From the NCBI RefSeq assembly GCF_003334315.1, contig NZ_QOWR01000019.1: a DNA stretch of 64,000 bases, one strand, 5' to 3'. This DNA comes from Escherichia coli (GTDB lineage: Bacteria > Pseudomonadota > Gammaproteobacteria > Enterobacterales > Enterobacteriaceae). Under the pieces are notes generated by a model that saw nothing but the letters and a program-made list of their open reading frames with translations, was not told the DNA's origin and ran no database searches. The position numbers and the translations under genes were made by a program. Each line of letters begins with the position of its first letter. Within the stretch, counting starts at the first letter, position 1. Below, one piece after another: positions 23,526 to 50,637 of this stretch.

Positions 23526-24425
23526 TTACGCAGAGAAAAAGGCGATGAGGATCGGCACTAACAGGCTAAGAATAAAACCGTGAACAATTGCCGCCGGGAC
23601 CATATCCAGCCCGCCAGTACGTTGAAGAACGGGCAGGGTGAAATCCATTGATGTGGCACCGCATAAGCCCAGTGCAGTAGAGCGGCTGCGGCGAATCAGC
23701 CCAGGGATCAACATAATAGCAATCAGTTCACGGGCCAGATCATTAAAAAACGCCGCGCTCCCGATTACCGGGCCAAAAGATTCGGTCAATAAAATACCGG
23801 AAAGAGAATACCAGCCGAAACCGGAGGCCATTGCCAGCGCGGTATTGATGGGGAGATCAAGAATAAAGGCGTTAATTAAACCACCAATTAATGAACTGGC
23901 AACCACCACCACGGCGACAATCATTCCCCGGCGATTAAGGACAATCTGCTTTAAGGTCATGCCATTATTGCGCAACTGAATACCGACGAGGAAAAGTAGC
24001 AGAATTAACGTGTATTCGCTGGCTTCGGTCGCGTGTTGTAAGAAAGCCAGTCCACTCAGACCAATGGCAAAACCAATCACTACTACGCCGCACAGTTTTA
24101 GCGACTCCAGCGCCATCGCAATACGCGACGGGAGTTTTTCTTGCTGATGGTGATTGCGCCATGGCAGGCCTCGCTCCAGCCACATCAGGGCGGCAATATT
24201 ACATAGTAAAATAACGGTAATACTGACAGCAGAATAATGCAGAATCGCCAACAGGTTACTGGCGAGGTTATCGAGAAACGCCAGACTGATACCCATAAAA
24301 AAGAGAATAAGGTAAACCATCCAGCTTAATAGCTGATTAATAACTTTTAATGCAGCTTTTTGGCGAAGCGGAATGAGGTAACCCACAATCAGGGGAACCA
24401 GAATGATTAACAGCCCAGAAAACAT
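23526..24425 (-). CDS. ybjE: Lysine exporter LysO (YbjE)
   Basis: ORF track 23526..24473; start set to the ATG at 24425 (MFSGLLIILVPLIVG...), 299 aa, polytopic membrane protein. Confidence 0.85.
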   Translation of the reverse strand: MFSGLLIILVPLIVGYLIPLRQKAALKVINQLLSWMVYLILFFMGISLAFLDNLASNLLAILHYSAVSITVILLCNIAALMWLERGLPWRNHHQQEKLPSRIAMALESLKLCGVVVIGFAIGLSGLAFLQHATEASEYTLILLLFLVGIQLRNNGMTLKQIVLNRRGMIVAVVVVASSLIGGLINAFILDLPINTALAMASGFGWYSLSGILLTESFGPVIGSAAFFNDLARELIAIMLIPGLIRRSRSTALGLCGATSMDFTLPVLQRTGGLDMVPAAIVHGFILSLLVPILIAFFSA

Positions 24426-24630
24426 GAAAACCCAGTCCTTGCAAAGATGAAGTCGAAATGCGCGATGACACACTACTGAAAGCGGAAGGACGAGTAAAGT
24501 TGCAATTAAAAGGAAATGTTATGCATAAGGAGCAGTAGAGTATTCGTTTTCATTTAAAGATATTCTTGCGCTTTAATTACAAACTGCACCGATGTTGGTG
24601 GCGTCAAAATCGCCGAGGCGTTCCCTGAAG

Positions 24631-24810
24631 GCCGGGGCAGCCCACATGGATGTGGGCTGAGGGCGCGTTTTACAGGGATGTTACCTCGCGCCCGACCCGG
24701 TAGCCGTAAGGGATAAGTCGAGGGCACCGCGCAGCGGCGATTTTGTTCGCCAGAGCCCGGGGGTGCAGGGGGCGGCGGCGATTGGCCGCCCCCTGCGCGC
24801 TCCTTGCGCC
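24631..24810. repeat. GC-rich multi-palindromic intergenic element of unknown function
   Basis: Three near-perfect inverted repeats: CAGCCCACAT-GG-ATGTGGGCTG (24638-24659); GGGCGCG-N19-CGCGCCC (24661-24693); GCAGGGGGCGGC-N8-GCCGCCCCCTGC (24765-24796, 12-bp perfect stem). No T-run follows either strand, so it is not an intrinsic terminator. Confidence 0.45.
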
Positions 24811-24880
24811 AGTGGCAATATGTGGCTTAGCTCATGAAAGGAGCGCAACAAGATGATGAATCAACATATAACAACATCTT

Positions 24881-24908
24881 AAAAAAAGGCCTGACATTAC
24901 GCCAGGCC
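24881..24908 (-). terminator. Rho-independent terminator of aqpZ
   Basis: Minus-strand hairpin GGCCTGGCGTAATGTCAGGCC followed by TTTTTTT, immediately downstream of the aqpZ stop. Confidence 0.75.
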
Positions 24909-24919
24909 TTCTGCGTTAA

Positions 24920-25615
24920 TTAATCACGCTTTTCCAGCAGGGTCCGGTAAATCAGACCACCGATAATGCCGCCGACAATTGGCACCACCCAGAAGAACCA
25001 CAGTTGTTCTAATGCCCAGCCGCCCTGGAAGATAGCAACCGCGGTGCTGCGCGCCGGGTTAACAGAAGTGTTAGTCACCGGAATACTGATTAAGTGAATC
25101 AGGGTTAAGGCCAGACCAATAGCGATCGGCGCAAAACCTGCCGGAGCGAATTTGTCGGTTGCGCCGTGGATCACCAACAGGAAACCTGCACTCAATACCA
25201 GTTCAACTACCAGCGCGGAAAGCATGGAATAACCGCCTGGTGAATGCTCGCCATAACCGTTAGAAGCAAAACCGCTGGCTGCCGCGTCAAAACCCGTTTT
25301 ACCACTGGCAATTAAATACAGCAGCGCTGCCGCAACAATACCGCCGACAACCTGGGCAATTACGTAGCCAACGACTTCTTTTGCCGGAAAACGTCCGCCA
25401 GCCCATAAACCAATAGTGACCGCCGGGTTAAAATGACCACCAGAAATATGACCAACAGCAAAGGCCATCGTCAGAACGGTCAGACCGAACGCCAACGCCA
25501 CGCCGGCAAAACCAATGCCTAATTCCGGGAAGCCTGCGGCCAGTACAGCACTACCACAGCCACCAAAAACAAGCCAGAAAGTACCAAAACATTCAGCTGC
25601 TAATTTTCTGAACAT
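24920..25615 (-). CDS. aqpZ: Aquaporin Z
   Basis: ORF track 24920..25621; start set to the ATG at 25615 ([13 protein letters not shown]...), 231 aa; both NPA motifs present (HFNPAVT, SVNPAR). Confidence 0.93.
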
Positions 25616-26039
25616 ATCCACCTCAATTAAAAATTGACCCTGTGAAAAATATGGTCGTTTTATAGGGCCGTCGTAAAAAGTGACGACGGAAATAATGCGC
25701 GGCTATTTTAAAAACGAAGGCGAGTCATTCACCAGATAAATAAATCCAGTAAATTTGATTTAGGGCAACAGCGGGTTACCCCATATAGTCGTTTGTCTGA
25801 TTGACAGTGTAGTGCAAGCAAAAGATTTAATCCTTTAGGCGTAATAAAAAATAATTTATCATGCTAATTATTTGATTTTGTTATTTTTGCAGACTTATCA
25901 GCAAGAGGGAGTATAACGCGATTATTCGCTCATTTTTCAGACATTTGCCATGCTTAAATGTGATGTCATCACGTATTAGCAAGGCCTTTCCCGTTATACT
26001 GCCAGCGTAAAGGATAAGTCACATATTTCTGGAGGGGAT

Positions 26040-27698
26040 ATGATTCTTGAGCGCGTTGAAATTGTGGGTTTTCGCGGTATCAACCGTTTGTCGTTGATGC
26101 TGGAACAAAACAACGTCCTGATTGGGGAGAACGCGTGGGGTAAATCCAGCTTGCTGGACGCCTTAACCCTGCTGCTATCGCCAGAATCAGATCTCTACCA
26201 TTTTGAGCGCGACGATTTCTGGTTCCCGCCGGGAGATATCAACGGGCGAGAACATCATCTGCATATTATTTTGACCTTCCGCGAATCGCTGCCAGGCCGA
26301 CATCGGGTTCGCCGTTATCGGCCGCTGGAAGCGTGCTGGACGCCATGCACCGATGGCTATCACCGTATTTTTTATCGTCTGGAAGGGGAGAGTGCGGAAG
26401 ACGGCAGCGTGATGACACTGCGCAGTTTTCTCGATAAAGACGGACATCCGATTGATGTCGAGGATATTAACGATCAGGCACGCCATCTGGTGCGTTTAAT
26501 GCCGGTGCTGCGCTTGCGTGATGCCCGTTTTATGCGCCGTATTCGTAACGGCACGGTGCCAAATGTCCCTAATGTGGAAGTCACCGCGCGCCAGCTCGAT
26601 TTCCTCGCCCGTGAGTTATCCTCACATCCGCAAAATCTCTCTGATGGGCAGATTCGTCAGGGACTTTCCGCAATGGTACAGCTGCTTGAGCATTATTTCT
26701 CTGAGCAGGGGGCCGGACAGGCGCGATATCGTTTAATGCGGCGGCGAGCCAGCAATGAGCAACGAAGCTGGCGCTATCTGGATATCATCAACCGGATGAT
26801 TGACCGACCTGGTGGGCGCTCGTATCGGGTTATTTTGCTCGGCCTGTTTGCTACTTTGTTGCAGGCAAAAGGCACATTGCGACTGGATAAAGACGCCCGT
26901 CCATTGTTGCTGATCGAAGATCCAGAAACCCGTTTACACCCCATTATGCTTTCAGTTGCCTGGCATCTGTTGAATCTTCTGCCATTGCAGCGCATTGCCA
27001 CCACCAACTCGGGTGAGTTGCTTTCGTTAACGCCGGTAGAGCATGTTTGCCGACTGGTACGTGAGTCCTCGCGCGTTGCCGCCTGGCGTCTGGGGCCGAG
27101 TGGCTTGAGTACCGAAGATAGCCGACGCATATCCTTTCACATTCGTTTTAACCGTCCGTCATCGCTGTTTGCACGCTGCTGGTTGCTGGTGGAAGGGGAA
27201 ACGGAAACCTGGGTTATCAATGAACTGGCGCGTCAGTGCGGACATCATTTTGATGCCGAAGGGATCAAGGTCATTGAGTTTGCCCAGTCCGGGCTAAAGC
27301 CACTGGTTAAATTTGCCCGCCGAATGGGGATTGAATGGCATGTACTGGTCGATGGCGATGAAGCAGGGAAGAAATATGCCGCTACGGTACGCAGCCTGTT
27401 GAATAACGATCGGGAAGCCGAACGAGAACATTTAACGGCGTTACCGGCGCTGGATATGGAACATTTTATGTATCGCCAGGGATTTTCCGATGTGTTCCAC
27501 CGCATGGCGCAAATCCCGGAAAATGTACCGATGAATCTACGCAAAATTATCTCGAAAGCGATCCATCGCTCTTCCAAACCCGATCTTGCCATTGAAGTGG
27601 CAATGGAGGCAGGACGTCGTGGTGTGGACTCCGTACCGACGCTGCTGAAAAAAATGTTCTCACGCGTGCTGTGGCTGGCGCGCGGTCGCGCGGATTAA
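26040..27698 (+). CDS. ybjD: OLD-family ATP-dependent endonuclease-like protein YbjD (N-terminal ABC-type ATPase, C-terminal Toprim-like region)
   Basis: 552-aa ORF; N-terminal P-loop GENAWGKSSLLDAL typical of OLD/RecF-like ATPases; family assignment from memory of YbjD. Confidence 0.85.
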   Translation: MILERVEIVGFRGINRLSLMLEQNNVLIGENAWGKSSLLDALTLLLSPESDLYHFERDDFWFPPGDINGREHHLHIILTFRESLPGRHRVRRYRPLEACWTPCTDGYHRIFYRLEGESAEDGSVMTLRSFLDKDGHPIDVEDINDQARHLVRLMPVLRLRDARFMRRIRNGTVPNVPNVEVTARQLDFLARELSSHPQNLSDGQIRQGLSAMVQLLEHYFSEQGAGQARYRLMRRRASNEQRSWRYLDIINRMIDRPGGRSYRVILLGLFATLLQAKGTLRLDKDARPLLLIEDPETRLHPIMLSVAWHLLNLLPLQRIATTNSGELLSLTPVEHVCRLVRESSRVAAWRLGPSGLSTEDSRRISFHIRFNRPSSLFARCWLLVEGETETWVINELARQCGHHFDAEGIKVIEFAQSGLKPLVKFARRMGIEWHVLVDGDEAGKKYAATVRSLLNNDREAEREHLTALPALDMEHFMYRQGFSDVFHRMAQIPENVPMNLRKIISKAIHRSSKPDLAIEVAMEAGRRGVDSVPTLLKKMFSRVLWLARGRAD

Positions 27699-28687
27699 CC
27701 GCGAAACATCGTGGCCATTTGTGGCTGAATAGCGTCGAGCATCTCATAGCGCCGACGGTATTCAGCCCGTTTTTTACTGGCGATTTCGGCAATCTCTTTT
27801 CGTGCTATCTGTGCTGGAAGGCGGTAATGGCGTTCAGCATCACATACGCCGCCAACCGATTCCCAGAAAGCGTTGTAATCAGCGTGGATCTTGCCTTCTT
27901 TATCGCGATAACGCAGGCTGCGGTAAATATGCGTTTCATTGCTGACGGCAATAATCTGCTCTACCTGCAAACGTTGGGCAAACAGACAGGCCGCTTCCAT
28001 CACGAGGCGTTTGGGAAATAGCCCGTGGCAGGCTTTCGTCGCATTCTGGATTTCCTGATGTGGAATTTCCCATTTTGCGCCTTGCAGTCCGCCAATAAAC
28101 ATCGTTCTTTTCCCCTGATATTCACACAGGGTAAACGTGATCTCTGCCAGAGGAATACCTTCGCTGTTGCGGAACAGGATTGTGCTGTCACCTTCTTTAT
28201 CCATTGAGATCATCATGGTCAGCTCAAGCGTGAACTGCTCGCCGTTTTTGCCTTCCAGCTTCGCCAGTTGCAGCCCGGGGGTATTCAAATATAAGCTGAA
28301 TTCTTCCGCCGACATACATTCGCGGAGTAACGCATAATGGTAACGTAACGCCTCCAGCAATTGCTTACGGCTAAGATTCGCCGCAAGGTAAGGGCGATGC
28401 AGACGCACAGGCAGTCGCGGCTGGCGCGTTAACAATACATTGAGATTAGGCCAGTGGGAAAGTTCGTTCATCCACTCAACGCTTAAACGCGGCATAATCA
28501 ACGAGCGCAGCAAAAATTTCTGGCGAAAACTACGGCGATGCCAGAATTTACCCGGCCGACACTGTCCACGTGCCAGACTAAGAAAAAGTGACAGGCTGCT
28601 GAGAGATTCAGATGGCGTAAAGGTCCGTTCAGTTAGCTGCGACATATTCATGAAATCAATGGTTATACATGACGTCGATTTCACCAT
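27695..28687 (-). CDS. ybjX: DUF535 (VirK-like) protein YbjX
   Basis: 330-aa ORF convergent with ybjD (4-bp overlap of 3' ends); start not independently verified. Confidence 0.8.
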   Translation of the reverse strand: MVKSTSCITIDFMNMSQLTERTFTPSESLSSLSLFLSLARGQCRPGKFWHRRSFRQKFLLRSLIMPRLSVEWMNELSHWPNLNVLLTRQPRLPVRLHRPYLAANLSRKQLLEALRYHYALLRECMSAEEFSLYLNTPGLQLAKLEGKNGEQFTLELTMMISMDKEGDSTILFRNSEGIPLAEITFTLCEYQGKRTMFIGGLQGAKWEIPHQEIQNATKACHGLFPKRLVMEAACLFAQRLQVEQIIAVSNETHIYRSLRYRDKEGKIHADYNAFWESVGGVCDAERHYRLPAQIARKEIAEIASKKRAEYRRRYEMLDAIQPQMATMFRG

Positions 28688-28801
28688 TGCGTATCTTAAC
28701 CAAACATCAATAGTGTGATTACTAACGTAAATTTTAGGGGTTTGTTGATATTTCGTTGAAGTTAATGACCCGGATTGGCATATGGAGTATTCAGAATATT
28801 T

Positions 28802-29917
28802 ATGAAAAAGCGGAAAACCGTGAAGAAGCGTTACGTTATTGCGCTGGTGATAGTCATCGCCGGACTGATTACGTTATGGAGAATTCTTAACGCACCCGTG
28901 CCGACTTATCAGACACTGATTGTGCGCCCCGGTGATTTACAGCAAAGCGTGCTGGCGACCGGAAAGCTGGACGCGCTGCGTAAGGTTGACGTGGGCGCGC
29001 AGGTCAGCGGTCAGTTGAAAACGCTGTCGGTGGCGATTGGCGATAAAGTAAAAAAAGACCAGCTTTTAGGGGTCATTGATCCTGAACAGGCTGAAAACCA
29101 GATCAAGGAGGTCGAAGCAACGCTGATGGAGCTACGCGCGCAGCGGCAGCAGGCGAAAGCGGAGCTGAAACTGGCGCGGGTGACGTATTCCCGTCAGCAA
29201 CGTCTGGCACAAACGCAGGCGGTTTCACAGCAGGATCTCGACACCGCCGCGACGGAGATGGCTGTGAAACAGGCGCAAATTGGCACCATTGACGCGCAAA
29301 TCAAGCGCAATCAGGCTTCTCTCGATACGGCTAAAACCAATCTCGATTACACTCGCATCGTTGCCCCGATGGCCGGGGAAGTCACGCAAATCACCACTCT
29401 GCAAGGCCAGACGGTGATTGCCGCACAACAAGCACCGAACATTCTGACGCTGGCAGATATGAGCACCATGCTGGTAAAAGCGCAGGTTTCTGAAGCGGAT
29501 GTAATCCACCTGAAGCCGGGGCAAAAAGCCTGGTTTACGGTGCTTGGCGATCCACTGACGCGCTACGAGGGGCAAATCAAGGATGTACTACCGACGCCGG
29601 AAAAGGTTAACGACGCTATTTTCTATTACGCCCGTTTTGAAGTCCCCAACCCCAATGGTTTGCTGCGGCTGGATATGACTGCGCAAGTGCATATTCAGCT
29701 CACCGATGTGAAAAATGTGCTGACGATCCCTCTGTCGGCGTTAGGCGATCCGGTTGGCGATAATCGTTATAAAGTCAAATTGTTGCGTAATGGTGAAACA
29801 CGCGAGCGTGAAGTGACGATTGGCGCACGTAACGATACCGATGTTGAGATTGTCAAAGGGCTTGAAGCGGGCGATGAAGTGGTGATTGGTGAGGCCAAAC
29901 CAGGAGCTGCACAATGA
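28802..29917 (+). CDS. macA: Macrolide export membrane fusion protein MacA
   Basis: ORF track 28775..29917; start set to the ATG at 28802 ([18 protein letters not shown]...), 371 aa. Confidence 0.92.
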
Positions 29918-31860
29918 CGCCTTTGCTCGAATTAAAGGATATTCGTCGCAGCTATCCTGCCGGTGATGAGCAGGTTGAGGTGCTGAAGGGCATCAGCCTC
30001 GATATTTATGCGGGTGAGATGGTCGCGATTGTTGGCGCTTCGGGTTCCGGTAAATCGACCCTGATGAATATTCTCGGCTGTCTGGATAAGGCCACCAGCG
30101 GCACCTATCGCGTCGCCGGTCAGGATGTTGCCACGCTGGACGCCGATGCGCTGGCGCAACTGCGCCGCGAGCATTTCGGCTTTATTTTCCAGCGTTACCA
30201 TTTGCTTTCGCATTTAACCGCCGAGCAGAACGTTGAAGTACCCGCCGTCTATGCTGGTCTTGAGCGGAAACAGCGACTGCTTCGTGCCCAGGAGTTGCTG
30301 CAACGGCTGGGGCTGGAAGACCGTACAGAGTATTATCCGGCACAGCTTTCGGGTGGTCAGCAACAGCGCGTCAGCATCGCGCGGGCATTGATGAACGGTG
30401 GTCAGGTAATTCTTGCCGATGAACCAACCGGCGCACTGGACAGCCATTCTGGCGAAGAGGTGATGGCGATCCTGCATCAGCTGCGCGATCGCGGGCATAC
30501 GGTGATTATCGTCACCCACGATCCGCAGGTCGCTGCTCAGGCCGAGCGGGTGATCGAAATTCGCGACGGCGAAATTGTGCGCAATCCTCCCGCCATTGAA
30601 AAAGTGAATGTTGCTGGCGGGACGGAGCCTGTTGTCAACACGGTGTCTGGCTGGCGGCAGTTTGTCAGCGGTTTTAACGAGGCGCTGACGATGGCATGGC
30701 GGGCGCTGGCAGCGAATAAAATGCGTACTTTACTGACCATGCTGGGGATTATTATCGGTATTGCGTCGGTGGTTTCCATTGTCGTGGTGGGTGACGCCGC
30801 CAAACAAATGGTGCTGGCGGATATTCGTTCTATTGGTACGAATACTATTGATGTCTATCCCGGGAAAGATTTTGGCGATGACGATCCGCAATATCAACAG
30901 GCGCTGAAGTACGACGACTTAATCGCCATCCAAAAACAACCGTGGGTCGCCTCAGCCACACCTGCCGTCTCGCAAAACCTGCGCCTGCGTTATAACAATG
31001 TTGATGTTGCTGCCAGTGCCAATGGCGTGAGCGGCGATTATTTTAATGTCTATGGCATGACTTTCAGTGAAGGGAACACCTTTAATCAGGAGCAGCTGAA
31101 CGGTCGTGCGCAGGTCGTGGTTCTCGACAGTAATACTCGCCGCCAGCTTTTCCCCCATAAAGCAGATGTGGTTGGCGAGGTGATTCTGGTCGGCAATATG
31201 CCCGCCAGAGTCATTGGTGTGGCGGAAGAAAAACAGTCGATGTTTGGTAGCAGTAAAGTGCTGCGTGTCTGGCTACCTTACAGCACGATGTCCGGGCGAG
31301 TTATGGGCCAGTCGTGGCTTAACTCCATTACTGTCAGGGTGAAAGAAGGATTTGACAGCGCCGAGGCGGAACAGCAACTCACGCGTTTACTTTCACTGCG
31401 CCACGGAAAGAAGGATTTCTTTACCTGGAACATGGACGGCGTCTTGAAAACTGTTGAAAAGACCACACGTACTTTACAACTGTTTCTGACGCTGGTGGCG
31501 GTGATTTCGCTGGTGGTGGGTGGTATTGGTGTAATGAATATTATGCTGGTGTCAGTGACCGAGCGGACACGGGAAATTGGCATTCGCATGGCTGTAGGTG
31601 CGCGAGCAAGCGATGTTTTGCAACAGTTCCTGATCGAAGCCGTACTGGTTTGCCTGGTCGGTGGCGCGTTGGGAATAACACTGTCACTGTTAATTGCTTT
31701 CACCTTGCAGCTTTTCTTACCCGGCTGGGAGATTGGTTTTTCACCGTTGGCACTGCTGCTGGCGTTTCTCTGCTCGACGGTCACCGGGATTTTATTTGGA
31801 TGGTTACCCGCACGAAATGCGGCACGACTGGATCCAGTAGATGCTCTGGCACGAGAGTAA
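29914..31860 (+). CDS. macB: Macrolide export ABC transporter ATPase/permease MacB
   Basis: 648-aa ORF; N-terminal ABC ATPase ([17 protein letters not shown]) fused to a C-terminal FtsX-like permease; ATGA overlap with macA. Confidence 0.95.
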
Positions 31861-32800: not shown

Positions 32801-32830
32801 ATGCAGGCATAAAAATTGGGGGAGGTGCCT

Positions 32831-35107
32831 ATGCTCAATCAAGAACTGGAACTCAGTTTAAATATGGCTTTCGCCAGAGCGCGCGAGCACCGTCATGAGT
32901 TTATGACCGTCGAGCACTTGTTACTGGCGCTGCTCAGTAACCCATCTGCCCGGGAGGCGCTGGAAGCGTGTTCTGTGGATTTGGTTGCGCTCCGTCAGGA
33001 ACTGGAAGCCTTTATTGAACAAACCACACCCGTTCTGCCTGCCAGTGAAGAGGAGCGCGATACACAGCCGACGCTGAGTTTTCAGCGTGTACTGCAACGT
33101 GCGGTCTTCCATGTCCAGTCCTCCGGTCGCAATGAGGTTACCGGTGCAAACGTTCTGGTCGCTATCTTTAGCGAACAGGAGTCGCAGGCGGCATATCTGT
33201 TGCGTAAACATGAAGTCAGCCGTCTCGATGTGGTGAACTTTATCTCTCATGGCACGCGTAAAGACGAGCCGACACAGTCTTCTGATCCTGGCAGCCAGCC
33301 AAACAGCGAAGAACAAGCTGGTGGGGAGGAACGTATGGAGAATTTCACGACGAACCTGAACCAGCTTGCGCGTGTGGGCGGAATCGACCCACTGATTGGT
33401 CGTGAGAAAGAGCTGGAGCGTGCTATTCAGGTTCTCTGCCGTCGCCGTAAAAACAACCCGCTGCTGGTGGGGGAGTCTGGTGTCGGTAAAACCGCGATTG
33501 CAGAAGGTCTTGCCTGGCGAATTGTTCAGGGTGATGTGCCGGAAGTGATGGCTGACTGTACGATTTATTCTCTCGATATCGGTTCTCTGTTAGCGGGCAC
33601 AAAATATCGCGGCGACTTTGAAAAACGTTTTAAAGCGTTGCTCAAGCAGCTGGAGCAGGACACTAACAGCATCCTGTTTATTGATGAGATCCACACCATT
33701 ATCGGTGCGGGTGCAGCGTCTGGTGGTCAGGTCGATGCGGCTAACCTGATCAAACCGTTGCTCTCCAGCGGTAAAATTCGCGTAATTGGTTCGACAACCT
33801 ATCAGGAGTTCAGCAACATTTTCGAGAAAGACCGTGCTCTGGCGCGTCGCTTCCAGAAAATTGATATTACTGAACCGTCGATCGAAGAAACTGTTCAAAT
33901 CATCAATGGCCTGAAACCGAAGTATGAAGCGCACCACGACGTGCGTTATACCGCAAAAGCGGTGCGTGCGGCGGTAGAGCTGGCGGTGAAATACATTAAC
34001 GATCGTCATCTGCCGGATAAAGCCATTGATGTTATCGACGAAGCGGGCGCTCGCGCACGTCTGATGCCGGTAAGCAAACGCAAGAAAACCGTTAATGTGG
34101 CGGATATTGAGTCCGTGGTGGCCCGTATTGCACGCATTCCAGAGAAGAGTGTTTCTCAGAGTGACCGCGATACCCTGAAAAACCTCGGCGATCGCCTGAA
34201 AATGCTGGTCTTCGGCCAGGATAAAGCCATTGAGGCGCTGACTGAAGCCATTAAGATGGCGCGTGCAGGTTTAGGTCACGAACATAAACCGGTCGGTTCG
34301 TTCCTGTTTGCCGGTCCTACCGGGGTCGGGAAAACAGAGGTGACGGTACAGCTTTCGAAAGCGTTGGGCATTGAGCTTCTGCGCTTTGATATGTCCGAGT
34401 ATATGGAACGCCATACCGTCAGCCGTCTGATTGGTGCGCCTCCGGGATACGTTGGTTTTGATCAGGGCGGTTTGCTGACTGATGCGGTCATCAAGCATCC
34501 ACATGCGGTTCTGCTGCTGGACGAAATCGAGAAAGCGCACCCTGACGTGTTCAATATTCTGTTGCAGGTGATGGACAACGGTACGCTGACCGATAACAAC
34601 GGACGCAAAGCGGACTTCCGTAACGTGGTGCTGGTGATGACCACCAACGCCGGGGTACGTGAAACTGAGCGTAAATCCATTGGTCTTATCCACCAGGATA
34701 ACAGCACCGATGCGATGGAAGAGATCAAGAAGATCTTTACACCGGAATTCCGTAACCGTCTCGACAACATTATCTGGTTTGATCATCTGTCAACCGACGT
34801 GATCCATCAGGTGGTGGATAAATTCATCGTCGAGTTGCAGGTTCAGCTGGATCAGAAAGGTGTTTCTCTGGAAGTGAGCCAGGAAGCGCGTAACTGGCTG
34901 GCCGAGAAAGGTTACGACCGGGCAATGGGCGCTCGTCCGATGGCGCGTGTCATCCAGGACAACCTGAAAAAACCGCTCGCCAACGAACTGCTGTTTGGTT
35001 CGCTGGTGGACGGCGGTCAGGTCACCGTCGCACTGGATAAAGCGAAAAATGAGCTGACTTACGGATTCCAGAGTGCACAAAAGCACAAGGCGGAAGCAGC
35101 GCATTAA
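32831..35107 (+). CDS. clpA: ATP-dependent Clp protease ATP-binding subunit ClpA
   Basis: ORF track 32816..35107; start set to the ATG at 32831 ([19 protein letters not shown]...), 758 aa; two AAA+ modules (GESGVGKT and GPTGVGKT). Confidence 0.95.
33323..33337 (+). promoter_or_regulatory. clpA: Internal translation-initiation site in clpA (Met169) with its own Shine-Dalgarno; reported to yield the shorter ClpA65 product
   Basis: GGAGGA at 33325-33330 followed by an in-frame ATG at 33335-33337 (codon 169). Internal initiation in clpA is established knowledge, recalled from memory. Confidence 0.55.
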
Positions 35108-35318: not shown

Positions 35319-35523
35319 GTTCACTGCCGTACAGGCAGCTTAGAAAAACCTACCGTCTTGGCTAGCGGTTGCAGCGAACGTTCACTGCCGTACAGGCAGC
35401 TTAGAAAGGAACAATCTTGCAAAGGCTGTGAAAGTTGGCGTTCACTGCCGTACAGGCAGCTTAGAAATTCACAGGTAACATACTCCACCCACCATGTTCA
35501 CTGCCGTACAGACAGATAAAATG
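35319..35523 (+). CRISPR. Orphan (cas-less) type I-F CRISPR array: 3 full 28-bp repeats plus 1 degenerate terminal repeat, 3 spacers
   Basis: Repeat GTTCACTGCCGTACAGGCAGCTTAGAAA at 35319-35346, 35380-35407 and 35440-35467; degenerate copy GTTCACTGCCGTACAGACAGATAAAATG at 35496-35523. Spacers are 33, 32 and 28 bp. AT-rich putative leader at 35170-35318. No cas genes: clpA lies upstream, tRNA-Ser and infA downstream. Confidence 0.92.
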
Positions 35524-35566: not shown

Positions 35567-35654
35567 TGGCGGTGAGGGGGGGATTCGAACCCCCGATACG
35601 TTGCCGTATACACACTTTCCAGGCGTGCTCCTTCAGCCACTCGGACACCTCACC
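35567..35654 (-). tRNA. serW: tRNA-Ser (long variable arm, 88 nt)
   Basis: Minus-strand sequence GGTGAGGTGTCCGAGTGGCTGAAGGAGCACGCCTGGAAAGTGTGTATACGGCAACGTATCGGGGGTTCGAATCCCCCCCTCACCGCCA; T-arm GGTTCGAATCC, encoded CCA end; GGA anticodon inferred. Position between clpA and infA matches serW. Confidence 0.9.
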
Positions 35655-50399: not shown

Positions 50400-50423
50400 T
50401 ACCCAATTTTTCTGAATCTAAAA

Positions 50424-50446
50424 AGCGCCTGCGGGCGCTTTTTTTG
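50424..50446 (+). terminator. Rho-independent terminator of serS
   Basis: Hairpin AGCGCC-TGCG-GGCGCT followed by TTTTTTT. Confidence 0.8.
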
Positions 50447-50453
50447 TCTCCCT

Positions 50454-50467
50454 TTGATACCGAACAA
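50454..50467. promoter_or_regulatory. FNR binding site of the dmsABC promoter
   Basis: TTGATACCGAACAA matches the FNR consensus TTGAT-N4-ATCAA in 8 of 10 half-site positions; about 170 bp upstream of the dmsA start. Identity with the known dmsA FNR site is from memory. Confidence 0.55.
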
Positions 50468-50637
50468 TAATTACTCCTCACTTACACGTAATACTACTTT
50501 CGAGTGAAAATCTACCTATCTCTTTGATTTTCAAATTATTCGATGTATACAAGCCTATATAGCGAACTGCTATAGAAATAATTACACAATACGGTTTGTT
50601 ACTGGAATCAATCGTGAGCAAGCTTGAGTGAGCCATT

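Follow-up and report, generated by a model that had tools for sequence, protein, structure and literature searches.

ybjD of Escherichia coli, a core and vertically inherited OLD-family gene with a strongly conserved Toprim domain

Introduction

Does an OLD-family gene that stands alone in the core chromosome of Escherichia coli serve phage defence, or does it work for the cell itself? This question is raised by ybjD (proposed name oldB) and its convergent neighbour ybjX, which lie in a stretch of 64,000 nucleotides of E. coli contig NZ_QOWR01000019.1 (assembly GCF_003334315.1), the whole of which is hereafter called the window. The initial annotation of this locus had described ybjD as a solitary OLD-family gene of uncharacterised function, paired tail-to-tail with ybjX, and as a candidate single-gene defence or DNA-repair factor. 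The observation is correct, and its interpretation has largely been published already.

E. coli YbjD (b0876) was the query that seeded the OLD-family survey of Schiltz et al. in 2019, in which it was grouped with P2 and Salmonella as Class 1, i.e. solitary (PMC6755086), and a micropublication by Atahualpa et al. in 2026 proposed the name oldB, aligned the protein to known OLDs and described the aqpZ/ybjX context (PMC13261556). The gene in the window is the one treated in these two reports, with the same locus tag, length (552 amino acids), flanking genes, domains and Class 1 label; the statement that its function is uncharacterised is therefore out of date. According to the 2026 study (PMC13261556), ybjD is expressed in the wild type by quantitative reverse-transcription PCR, and its Keio deletion showed no altered susceptibility to the BASEL phages tested. 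Arabinose-induced ybjD lowered the plaquing of Bas18 and Bas20 and made the plaques of Bas64-68 smaller, among 68 BASEL phages. This effect was unaffected by mutating three acidic Toprim residues or by removing residues 378-552 and was abolished by deletion of the ATPase, and the K35A variant retained it and was more toxic. The toxicity was independent of RecBC, and a recBC-ts strain was not killed, unlike with P2 Old. The plaque assays that the initial annotation had proposed as a check on defence are thus in print, with a narrow effect on overexpression and no phenotype on deletion. Because that annotation had itself named the lack of a phage phenotype in deletion and overexpression strains as counting against it, these results and those on the Toprim domain weaken the single-gene defence reading, although the narrow overexpression effect exists. 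Elsewhere ybjD is mentioned as a neutral integration site and in one transcriptome and one proteome table, none of which informs on its function, and the name has been transferred in the literature to the Gabija-like pair S023/S024 of SGI1.

As first submitted, the finding repeats published work and so opens no new question. What the present analysis adds is the core and vertical inheritance of ybjD, the constraint on its Toprim domain, the dispensability of ybjX, a Class 2-like C-terminus and a linkage to macAB. On the whole evidence, we hold with modest confidence that YbjD is a stand-alone, vertically inherited OLD ATPase-Toprim enzyme with a host role that needs the nuclease.

Domain architecture and catalytic residues of YbjD

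The gene and the parts of its product are as follows, where TsOLD denotes the OLD protein of Thermus scotoductus.

26040-27698, + strand: ybjD (proposed oldB), 552 amino acids, ATG start; OLD-family ABC ATPase plus Toprim nuclease, DUF2813 subfamily
26124-26165, + strand: Walker A / P-loop, residues 29-42 (GENAWGKSSLLDAL), with K35; aligns to the TsOLD P-loop
26568-26870, + strand: helical insertion in the ATPase head, residues 177-277; five helices with lower confidence in the structural model, least conserved segment
26904-26942, + strand: Walker B / D-loop, residues 289-301 (LLLIEDPETRLHP), with E293 and H300; from profile alignment to TsOLD
27000-27011, + strand: H-loop position, residues 321-324 (TTNS); Asn323 aligns to TsOLD H310, the canonical ABC ATPase His
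27165-27449, + strand: Toprim domain, residues 376-470; putative metal A ligands E385, D438 and D440 and metal B ligand E389; aligns to TsOLD
27450-27695, + strand: C-terminal helical bundle, residues 471-552; putative metal B ligands D472 and E474, near-invariant K513-P514

The initial annotation assigned YbjD to the OLD-family ABC ATPases, and Pfam, profile and structural matches agree on this point. Pfam finds DUF2813 over residues 1-375 (E 3.5e-160) and OLD-like_TOPRIM over residues 376-440 (E 7.8e-16), together with N-terminal AAA_15, AAA_23 and SMC_N matches, and a profile of the YbjD clade built from 115 sequences retrieves TsOLD (6P74, E 1.3e-21) and GajA chains (about 1e-20) from the PDB. 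The AlphaFold2 (AF2) model made from the same alignment (predicted local distance difference test, pLDDT, 90.3; predicted template-modelling score, pTM, 0.89) has a two-lobed ABC head split by the insertion at residues 177-277, followed by the Toprim domain (376-470) and a four-helix C-terminal bundle (471-552).

Residues were mapped by profile alignment to TsOLD, with their roles taken from Schiltz 2020 (PMC7049728), and conservation was counted over 114 full-length relatives at 28-54% identity, or 115 sequences with YbjD included. The Walker A string quoted earlier, GENAWGKSSLLDAL, is found as residues 29-42 of the reading frame at 26040-27698, and the GxxxxGK[ST] motif reads GENAWGKSS (residues 29-37). 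Within it G29, G34 and K35 are conserved, position 35 being K in 101 and R in 10 of the 115 sequences. In the Walker B/D-loop (LLLIEDPETRLH), E293 falls on TsOLD E276 and H300 on TsOLD H283; E occupies position 293 in 102/115 and H position 300 in 113/115. The insertion that splits the head may occupy the position of the dimerisation domain of solved OLD proteins, by analogy with TsOLD and GajA (PMC7049728, PMC10568477). At the H-loop position 323 the clade has N in 72 sequences, H in 18, Q in 13 and Y in 9, and Asn323 is invariant across 80 Enterobacteriaceae. Asn at this position is a common Class 1 OLD variant already reported by Schiltz 2020 (PMC7049728), and we dropped it as a novelty for that reason.

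E385, D438, D440 and E389 of YbjD align to TsOLD E377, D431, D433 and D381, respectively, and the three metal A positions are either invariant or conserved at 98% or more. E385, G386, E387 and D440 are invariant in the 114 relatives, and E389, D438, G439, D472, E474 and K513 are at least 95% conserved, with K at position 513 in 114/115. The alignment suggests that YbjD carries a complete two-metal site, formed by E385/D438/D440 and E389/D472/E474. The assignment of D472 and E474 to metal B, and of K513 as the putative catalytic lysine, follows motif spacing and the superposition of the model on 6nk8. Structure prediction and a search for Toprim catalytic residues, whose absence the initial annotation regarded as contrary to its reading, thus found the candidate two-metal ligands and K513, all near-invariant.

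Selection on the Toprim domain

In comparisons with E. coli, the ratio of non-synonymous to synonymous rates (dN/dS) of ybjD lies between 0.017 (E. albertii) and 0.09, much as for aqpZ and macA; the values for more distant pairs are rough, since synonymous sites are near saturation there. The constraint is unevenly spread over the protein, as seen in the mean non-synonymous difference (pN) of each domain over eight genera.

N-terminal ATPase lobe: pN 0.116
Helical insert: pN 0.099
C-terminal ATPase lobe: pN 0.070
Toprim: pN 0.037, the lowest of all YbjD domains
C-terminal bundle: pN 0.072

Selection on the Toprim domain is thus stronger than on the ATPase. Among 80 orthologues, column identity averages 0.981 over residues 376-440, where 75% of columns are invariant, against 0.888 and 50% for the ATPase region; in the wide clade, 26 of 95 Toprim columns but only 6 of 176 columns of the N-terminal lobe are conserved at 90% or more. 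Antisense coding constraint cannot explain this conservation, because the overlap with ybjX amounts to only 4 nt.

There is a tension here: the only phenotype reported for YbjD is independent of the Toprim domain, yet this is the domain most protected by selection. Since the Toprim domain is under the strongest selection and yet dispensable for the overexpression phenotype, the native function of YbjD probably needs the nuclease, and the published overexpression phenotype is probably not that function. This suggests a real function other than the published one, and probably not classical phage defence.

Distribution and inheritance of ybjD

A 2.6-kb segment holding ybjD and ybjX occurs at 95% identity or more in 5425 of 5426 complete E. 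coli genomes, which bears out the placing of ybjD in the core genome. YbjD is 80-99% identical in 80 Enterobacteriaceae species and always lies between aqpZ/lysO and macAB; Yersinia (64% identity) keeps the E. coli-type layout, and in Proteus (56%) the order is lysO, ybjD, macA, macB. A contig scan with a single-protein query reached the Enterobacteriaceae only, and the wider reach came from an alignment-based metagenome scan. Distant homologues in Vibrio hibernica (41% identity), Motilimonas (40%) and Chitinilyticum (39%) are solitary among housekeeping genes, as are that of Candidatus Avisuccinivibrio and two DUF2813 proteins (P0213 and P0155). In a neighbour census of 33 lineages, defined as YbjD clusters at 70% identity, the recurrent neighbours are lysO, macA/macB, clpS/clpA, poxB, cysS, polA, pyrE, queH, yicC and similar genes. 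No helicase of the UvrD/GajB type stands beside a YbjD-clade gene in this census or in 13 homologue neighbourhoods; the earlier description of ybjD as solitary, with no helicase or other partner, holds in the window and in more than 30 lineages. A neighbour-joining tree of 32 representatives of the 33 lineages contains Enterobacterales, Vibrio-like and Succinivibrionaceae clades and follows gammaproteobacterial taxonomy, the pattern expected under vertical inheritance.

The YbjD-clade gene is absent from phages in 50,697 records, which gave only weak partial OLD-family matches, one to P2 old (27.8% identity over 190 residues, 252-440) and one to an unannotated gut phage contig; a match of 90.8% covers residues 1-98 only, on an unannotated 2-kb record. 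Matches of at least 99% to plasmid records come from records of 0.04-4.9 Mb, some of them chromosome-sized, which all hold the ybjD-ybjX pair of the chromosome and which we take to be chromosomal DNA, either captured or mislabelled, and plasmid matches below 60% identity are other OLD-family genes. DefenseFinder reports Class 1 OLD in 0.45% of genomes, a figure that cannot include the YbjD clade because this clade is fixed in Enterobacterales. The patchy, mobile or defence-island distribution that serves as the operational hallmark of a defence gene is thus not seen for ybjD.

These data bear on the rival that YbjD/OldB is a genuine single-gene Class 1 OLD defence, which senses some phages and aborts or limits infection and whose native range has so far gone unsampled. 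The reported reductions of Bas18/Bas20 plaquing and Bas64-68 plaque size were obtained at a non-toxic inducer level (PMC13261556), single-gene defence is reported for the relatives P2 Old and Vc OLD (PMC12445682, PMC12392090), and both the GajA and the Old models of PADLOC match YbjD. Against this stand the unchanged phage susceptibility of the Keio deletion and an overexpression effect without need for the nuclease domain (PMC13261556), the fact that selection is strongest on the very domain dispensable for that effect, and a gene that is strictly core, vertical, set amid housekeeping genes, absent from phages and not on true plasmids at high identity. We regard defence as a serious contender, though a doubtful one.

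Three side observations concern the clade. On the Serratia proteamaculans conjugative plasmid NZ_MT039179.1 (MOBP, MPF_I; L096, 5947-10146), a ybjD that has lost its 5' end (residues 34-552, with no coding-sequence annotation) is accompanied by a complete ybjX, by macA and by the beginning of macB, beside type IV pilus genes, and this region looks like a captured chromosomal fragment. A second Succinivibrionaceae-type YbjD clade, of about 610-660 amino acids (L085-L087, L113, L116, L117, L135, L145, L149, L152, L153, L157 and L158), has cysS upstream, in some cases with a PDDEXK_9/AAA-ATPase-like gene also upstream, and a convergent yicC that abuts the ybjD stop (7839/7840 in L085). The YbjD-clade proteins P0150, P0162, P0163, P0165, P0175 and P0196 are two- to three-fold expanded (1046-1867 amino acids) by long inserts of low complexity, probably disordered, within the ATPase head and the C-terminal bundle. 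Long YbjD-like proteins (800-1867 amino acids) were also considered as fusions that might reveal a partner, and this was rejected: P0162 consists of DUF2813 and Toprim, with no extra Pfam domain.

Class assignment and comparison with known OLD systems

YbjD is Class 1 by context, and its C-terminal region is Class 2-like by architecture. On the side of context, more than 30 lineages and the window show no adjacent helicase, reverse transcriptase or split ATPase/Toprim pair. The context of Class 2 (Gabija) is lacking, with no helicase reading frame or Pfam helicase beside any YbjD-clade gene examined, as is that of the Class 3 retrons, with no reverse transcriptase reading frame near ybjD and no retron RNA at 24000-30000; the NCBIfam model of the retron Eco8 effector scores YbjD at 20.6 bits against a cut-off of 250. 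Class 4/PARIS (AriA-AriB) does not fit either, both domains of YbjD being in one 552-residue chain, of which the AriA model matches residues 1-51 only.

On the side of architecture, YbjD lacks the compact C-terminus of TsOLD, which has no bundle and places an Arg/Lys some 7 residues beyond its metal B Glu. It has instead the helical insert in the Toprim domain and the C-terminal helical domain with a putative catalytic lysine that mark Class 2/GajA: the AF2 model places an extra helix at 458-464 between alpha3 and beta4 and further helices at 473-549 after the Toprim domain, and the conserved Lys of YbjD follows the metal B Glu at a distance of 39 residues (E474-K513), against 54 for BpOLD and 7 for both TsOLD and P2 Old. 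Superposing the C-terminal region of YbjD on that of BpOLD (6NK8) gives 2.3 Å over 164 residues, the best structural matches of YbjD are GajA chains, and in PADLOC the GajA model is the best (267 bits, E 6.8e-80), with the Old model at 84 bits. We ascribe the PADLOC preference to the Class 2-like C-terminal region.

These likenesses could also mean that YbjD is an orphaned Gabija GajA that has lost GajB and is either decaying or using a helicase encoded elsewhere, since the PADLOC ranking, the structural matches to GajA, the BpOLD superposition and the C-terminal bundle that TsOLD is without are all what it predicts. No helicase accompanies any clade member in the more than 30 lineages sampled, however, distant DUF2813 proteins included, and for this reason we do not read YbjD as a Gabija remnant. 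Strong purifying selection on ybjD shows that it is not decaying, and profile searches score TsOLD and GajA about equally. We consider an orphaned GajA very improbable.

Individual systems compare with YbjD as follows. The Class 1 TsOLD (6P74) differs in having no C-terminal helical bundle (PMC7049728), where YbjD has one of four helices, and in its H-loop residue, which is His in TsOLD and Asn in YbjD. GajA and BpOLD (8SM3, 8U7I, 6NK8) share with YbjD the Toprim and the C-terminal helical domain with a distal lysine; in GajA nucleotide binding restrains activity, and K35A suggests the same for YbjD (PMC13261556). Gabija has the helicase partner GajB and is mobile and patchily distributed (PMC10568477), whereas the YbjD clade has no such partner in the sampled contexts and is core and vertical. 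Phage P2 Old resembles YbjD as a single-gene OLD with a DxE metal B motif (D541/E543 in P2, D472/E474 in YbjD), and a weak direct match joins the two over residues 252-440. P2 Old is prophage-borne, kills recBC cells, cleaves tRNA and needs its ATPase and Toprim residues; YbjD, in contrast, is chromosomal and not lethal in recBC-ts, and its only known phenotype is Toprim-independent.

Proposed function of YbjD

We propose that an SMC/RecF-like ABC head (K35, E293, H300 and Asn323), interrupted by the helical insertion and followed by the Toprim domain and C-terminal bundle, may form a dimeric nuclease gated by nucleotide. Its activity would be held back when the head binds ATP, a proposal suggested by the hyper-toxicity of K35A (PMC13261556), by the analogy with GajA and by the non-canonical H-loop. 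The Toprim site would cut nucleic acid, either DNA or, by analogy with what is reported for P2 Old, structured RNA such as tRNA. From the housekeeping-like evolution of the gene, we consider a nuclease-dependent host function, on nucleic acid or in stress, the most likely main role of YbjD. The weak anti-phage effect, for which the Toprim domain is not needed, most likely arises as a by-product of having too much ATPase domain.

Several points weigh against a host role. The housekeeping view is drawn solely from the evolutionary pattern of the gene, all bacterial OLD proteins characterised so far act in phage defence, overexpressed YbjD does lower the plaquing of some phages (PMC13261556), and a core chromosomal location is compatible with defence. 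The ATP gating is deduced from one mutant phenotype and from the analogy with GajA. In addition, the ybjD deletion is viable with no reported growth defect, so any host role would be conditional.

A precedent may be found in Cran1, an archaeal OLD ATPase with a role in the cell cycle, which is reported to be vertically maintained and apparently cellular rather than antiviral in function (PMC12796447). Cran1 is essential, archaeal and of a separate class, whereas YbjD is non-essential and bacterial. If the host role is correct, YbjD would be a bacterial counterpart of this non-defence OLD protein and would caution against reading a defence role out of mere membership of the family.

The ybjD-ybjX junction

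The features around ybjD that bear on a possible partner are listed here.

27695-28687, - strand: ybjX, VirK/YbjX family, DUF535; reading frame of 330 amino acids, RefSeq start at 28651 (318 amino acids)
27695-27698, no strand: overlapping stops of the convergent ybjD and ybjX (TTAA), read in the sequence
25622-26039, no strand: AT-rich divergent intergenic region between aqpZ and ybjD, the putative promoter region of ybjD (GC content 0.39-0.43)
28802-31860, + strand: macA-macB efflux-pump genes, neighbours of ybjD; coordinates transferred from RefSeq

The window neighbours of ybjD in the reading-frame scan and in RefSeq are lysO/ybjE, aqpZ, ybjX, macA and macB; RefSeq labels ybjD as ATP-dependent endonuclease and ybjX as VirK/YbjX family protein. 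The predicted N-terminus of YbjD is MILERVEIVGFRGINRLSLMLEQNNVLIGENAWGKSSLLDAL, as translated in the scan, and a Shine-Dalgarno-like GGAGGGG lies upstream of the ATG. YbjX belongs to its named family by a DUF535 match (PF04393, E 1.6e-102, residues 48-325). That ybjD and ybjX are genuine conserved genes, not chance reading frames, follows from their strong Pfam matches and near-universal presence in E. coli; as first annotated, ybjX was a real gene whose RefSeq start lies 12 codons further in, at 28651 instead of 28687.

At the junction (GCGGATTAACCG), the TAA of ybjD occupies 27696-27698 and the stop of ybjX (TTA on the + strand) 27695-27697, so that the palindrome TTAA is common to both stop codons and the tail-to-tail arrangement with a 4-nt overlap can be read directly. 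Because the stops overlap and leave no space for a terminator, the convergent transcripts must overlap, and ExcludonFinder lists ybjD-ybjX among the convergent excludons supported by RNA sequencing (PMC12288877). A scan for promoters and terminators at 25500-29000 found no convincing promoter, with no strong sigma-70 consensus site in the aqpZ-ybjD spacer, and weak terminator-like hairpins at 27754-27771 (+), shortly after the ybjD stop and within ybjX, and at 27395-27378 (-), within ybjD, both of them consensus matches only. The spacer itself has served as a neutral integration site (PMC9203016).

That the two genes form a functional unit, such as an effector and its modulator, might be supposed from the overlapping stops, the excludon listing (PMC12288877) and the adjacency of the pair in Salmonella, Citrobacter, most Enterobacter, Yersinia and Serratia. 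The distribution of ybjX, however, already largely refutes this reading. Roughly one in four of the 80 Enterobacteriaceae loci (Klebsiella, Raoultella, Superficieibacter and some Enterobacter) lack ybjX and have macA directly after ybjD; ybjX is also missing from Proteus, Morganella, Erwiniaceae and every non-Enterobacterales lineage, and is present in 3 of the 33 lineages. In Kluyvera about 1.1 kb separates ybjD and ybjX, and overlapping stops are confined to Escherichia and its close relatives, the gap in Yersinia being 137 bp. Outside Escherichia, YbjX is 44-74% identical and YbjD 80-91%, and the dN/dS of ybjX is about 3-8 times that of ybjD. Furthermore, convergent genes cannot share a promoter, and published work regards ybjX/virK as a virulence or envelope gene under PhoP control. 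We give almost no credence to a two-gene unit. As a partner for ybjD, ybjX was rejected because it is dispensable across lineages and evolves faster at non-synonymous sites; the pairing that the initial annotation noted is a physical one, and a functional one is contradicted by the loss and rapid change of ybjX.

As the transcripts overlap and ybjX is regarded as PhoP-regulated, induction of ybjX could interfere with ybjD expression, which would not imply a shared biochemistry. The window contains no PhoP box upstream of ybjX and no LexA box upstream of ybjD; the matches to either motif are not above chance and none lies in the relevant intergenic regions. The absence of a LexA box leaves the suggestion of a DNA-repair or SOS factor unsupported here.

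Two observations on expression and sequence may be added. In uropathogenic E. coli exposed to a cathelicidin-type peptide, ybjD is listed as induced (1.31 in the table) alongside arn, evgS and marR (PMC6737244); had the library lacked strand specificity, transcription of PhoP-induced ybjX running on over the shared 3' end could account for this entry. YbjX of E. coli is about 55-62% identical to that of Salmonella or most Citrobacter (L007-L022), against 84-93% for every flanking gene, which means either that YbjX evolves very fast or that this PhoP-regulon gene has undergone allelic replacement while its locus stayed fixed.

Linkage to macAB

MacA and MacB, found in 8 of 33 lineages, share with LysO the place of most recurrent neighbour family in the census. 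In Morganella morganii (L139/L143, 8001-10807) the order is ybjD-macA-macB, with about 14 nt between the ybjD stop and the macA ATG and a Shine-Dalgarno-like sequence between them, and in Proteus, Klebsiella, Raoultella and some Enterobacter ybjD and macA are on the same strand, 54-184 nt apart. In E. coli, Salmonella and Yersinia the opposite-strand ybjX lies between them. In metagenome-assembled genomes of Succinivibrionaceae (L089, 3428-9641; L099, L111 and L108) the order is macA-macB-OEP-ybjD, with ATGA overlaps or gaps of at most 30 nt, an order kept although the pairwise identity of the YbjD proteins concerned is only 37-55%. In the YbjD tree the two macAB-linked groups do not pair as sisters, their gene orders differ, and the literature searched reports no link between ybjD and macAB.

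Might YbjD then work with the MacAB(-TolC/OEP) pump, co-expressed with it and serving the same response to envelope or xenobiotic stress, for instance by processing nucleic acid when pump substrates accumulate? The constant adjacency in the 80 Enterobacteriaceae loci, Yersinia, Proteus and Morganella, the tight spacing in Morganella, the order kept across divergent Succinivibrionaceae proteins and the separate standing of the two groups favour such a link, and its absence from the literature searched would make it new. Yet the 8 lineages collapse to two independent groups, and ybjD has no nearby macAB in the Erwiniaceae (Pantoea, Erwinia and Winslowiella), the Vibrio-like lineages, Motilimonas and Chitinilyticum, nor in the second Succinivibrionaceae clade; with several lineages lacking the linkage, it may be retained ancestral synteny. 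There is no biochemical rationale for the link, operons often hold unrelated genes, and in E. coli ybjX intervenes on the opposite strand. We judge a joint function with the pump unlikely. In its fullest form, the idea would make YbjD not primarily a phage-defence protein but a vertical gammaproteobacterial OLD nuclease tied to MacAB-TolC/OEP, co-transcribed with the pump genes in Morganella and Succinivibrionaceae and uncoupled from them by ybjX in E. coli, Salmonella and Yersinia, with the Toprim domain acting on host nucleic acid under pump-related stress; this form, too, we think improbable. The recurrent and partly operon-like linkage is, all the same, a concrete and cheap experimental handle.

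Other elements in the window

No Rfam match, retron RNA included, exceeded threshold at 24000-30000. Below threshold, the lysO-aqpZ spacer holds a match to the TwoAYGGAY RNA at 24604-24743 (+; 30.6 bits against a gathering score of 43, E 0.086), which coincides with a 16-nt inverted repeat (24605-24620 / 24730-24745) and is probably a REP-like palindrome rather than that RNA. Elsewhere in the window, three matches to small RNAs lie above their gathering scores, namely STnc130 at 50413-50547 (-, 140 bits), naRNA4/CssrE at 10320-10400 (+, 75.5 bits) and ES036/CssrF at 9298-9340 (+, 42.2 bits), and are unrelated to the finding on ybjD.

Finally, three identical 28-nt repeats (GTTCACTGCCGTACAGGCAGCTTAGAAA) with two spacers of about 33 nt occupy 35319-35467 (+), between a clpA-like reading frame (32816-35107) and tRNA-Ser(GGA) (35567-35654). 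Each repeat matches Rfam CRISPR-DR4 at 50.1 bits, and we take them to be the known short orphan type I-F array found between clpA and infA in E. coli strains without I-F cas genes.

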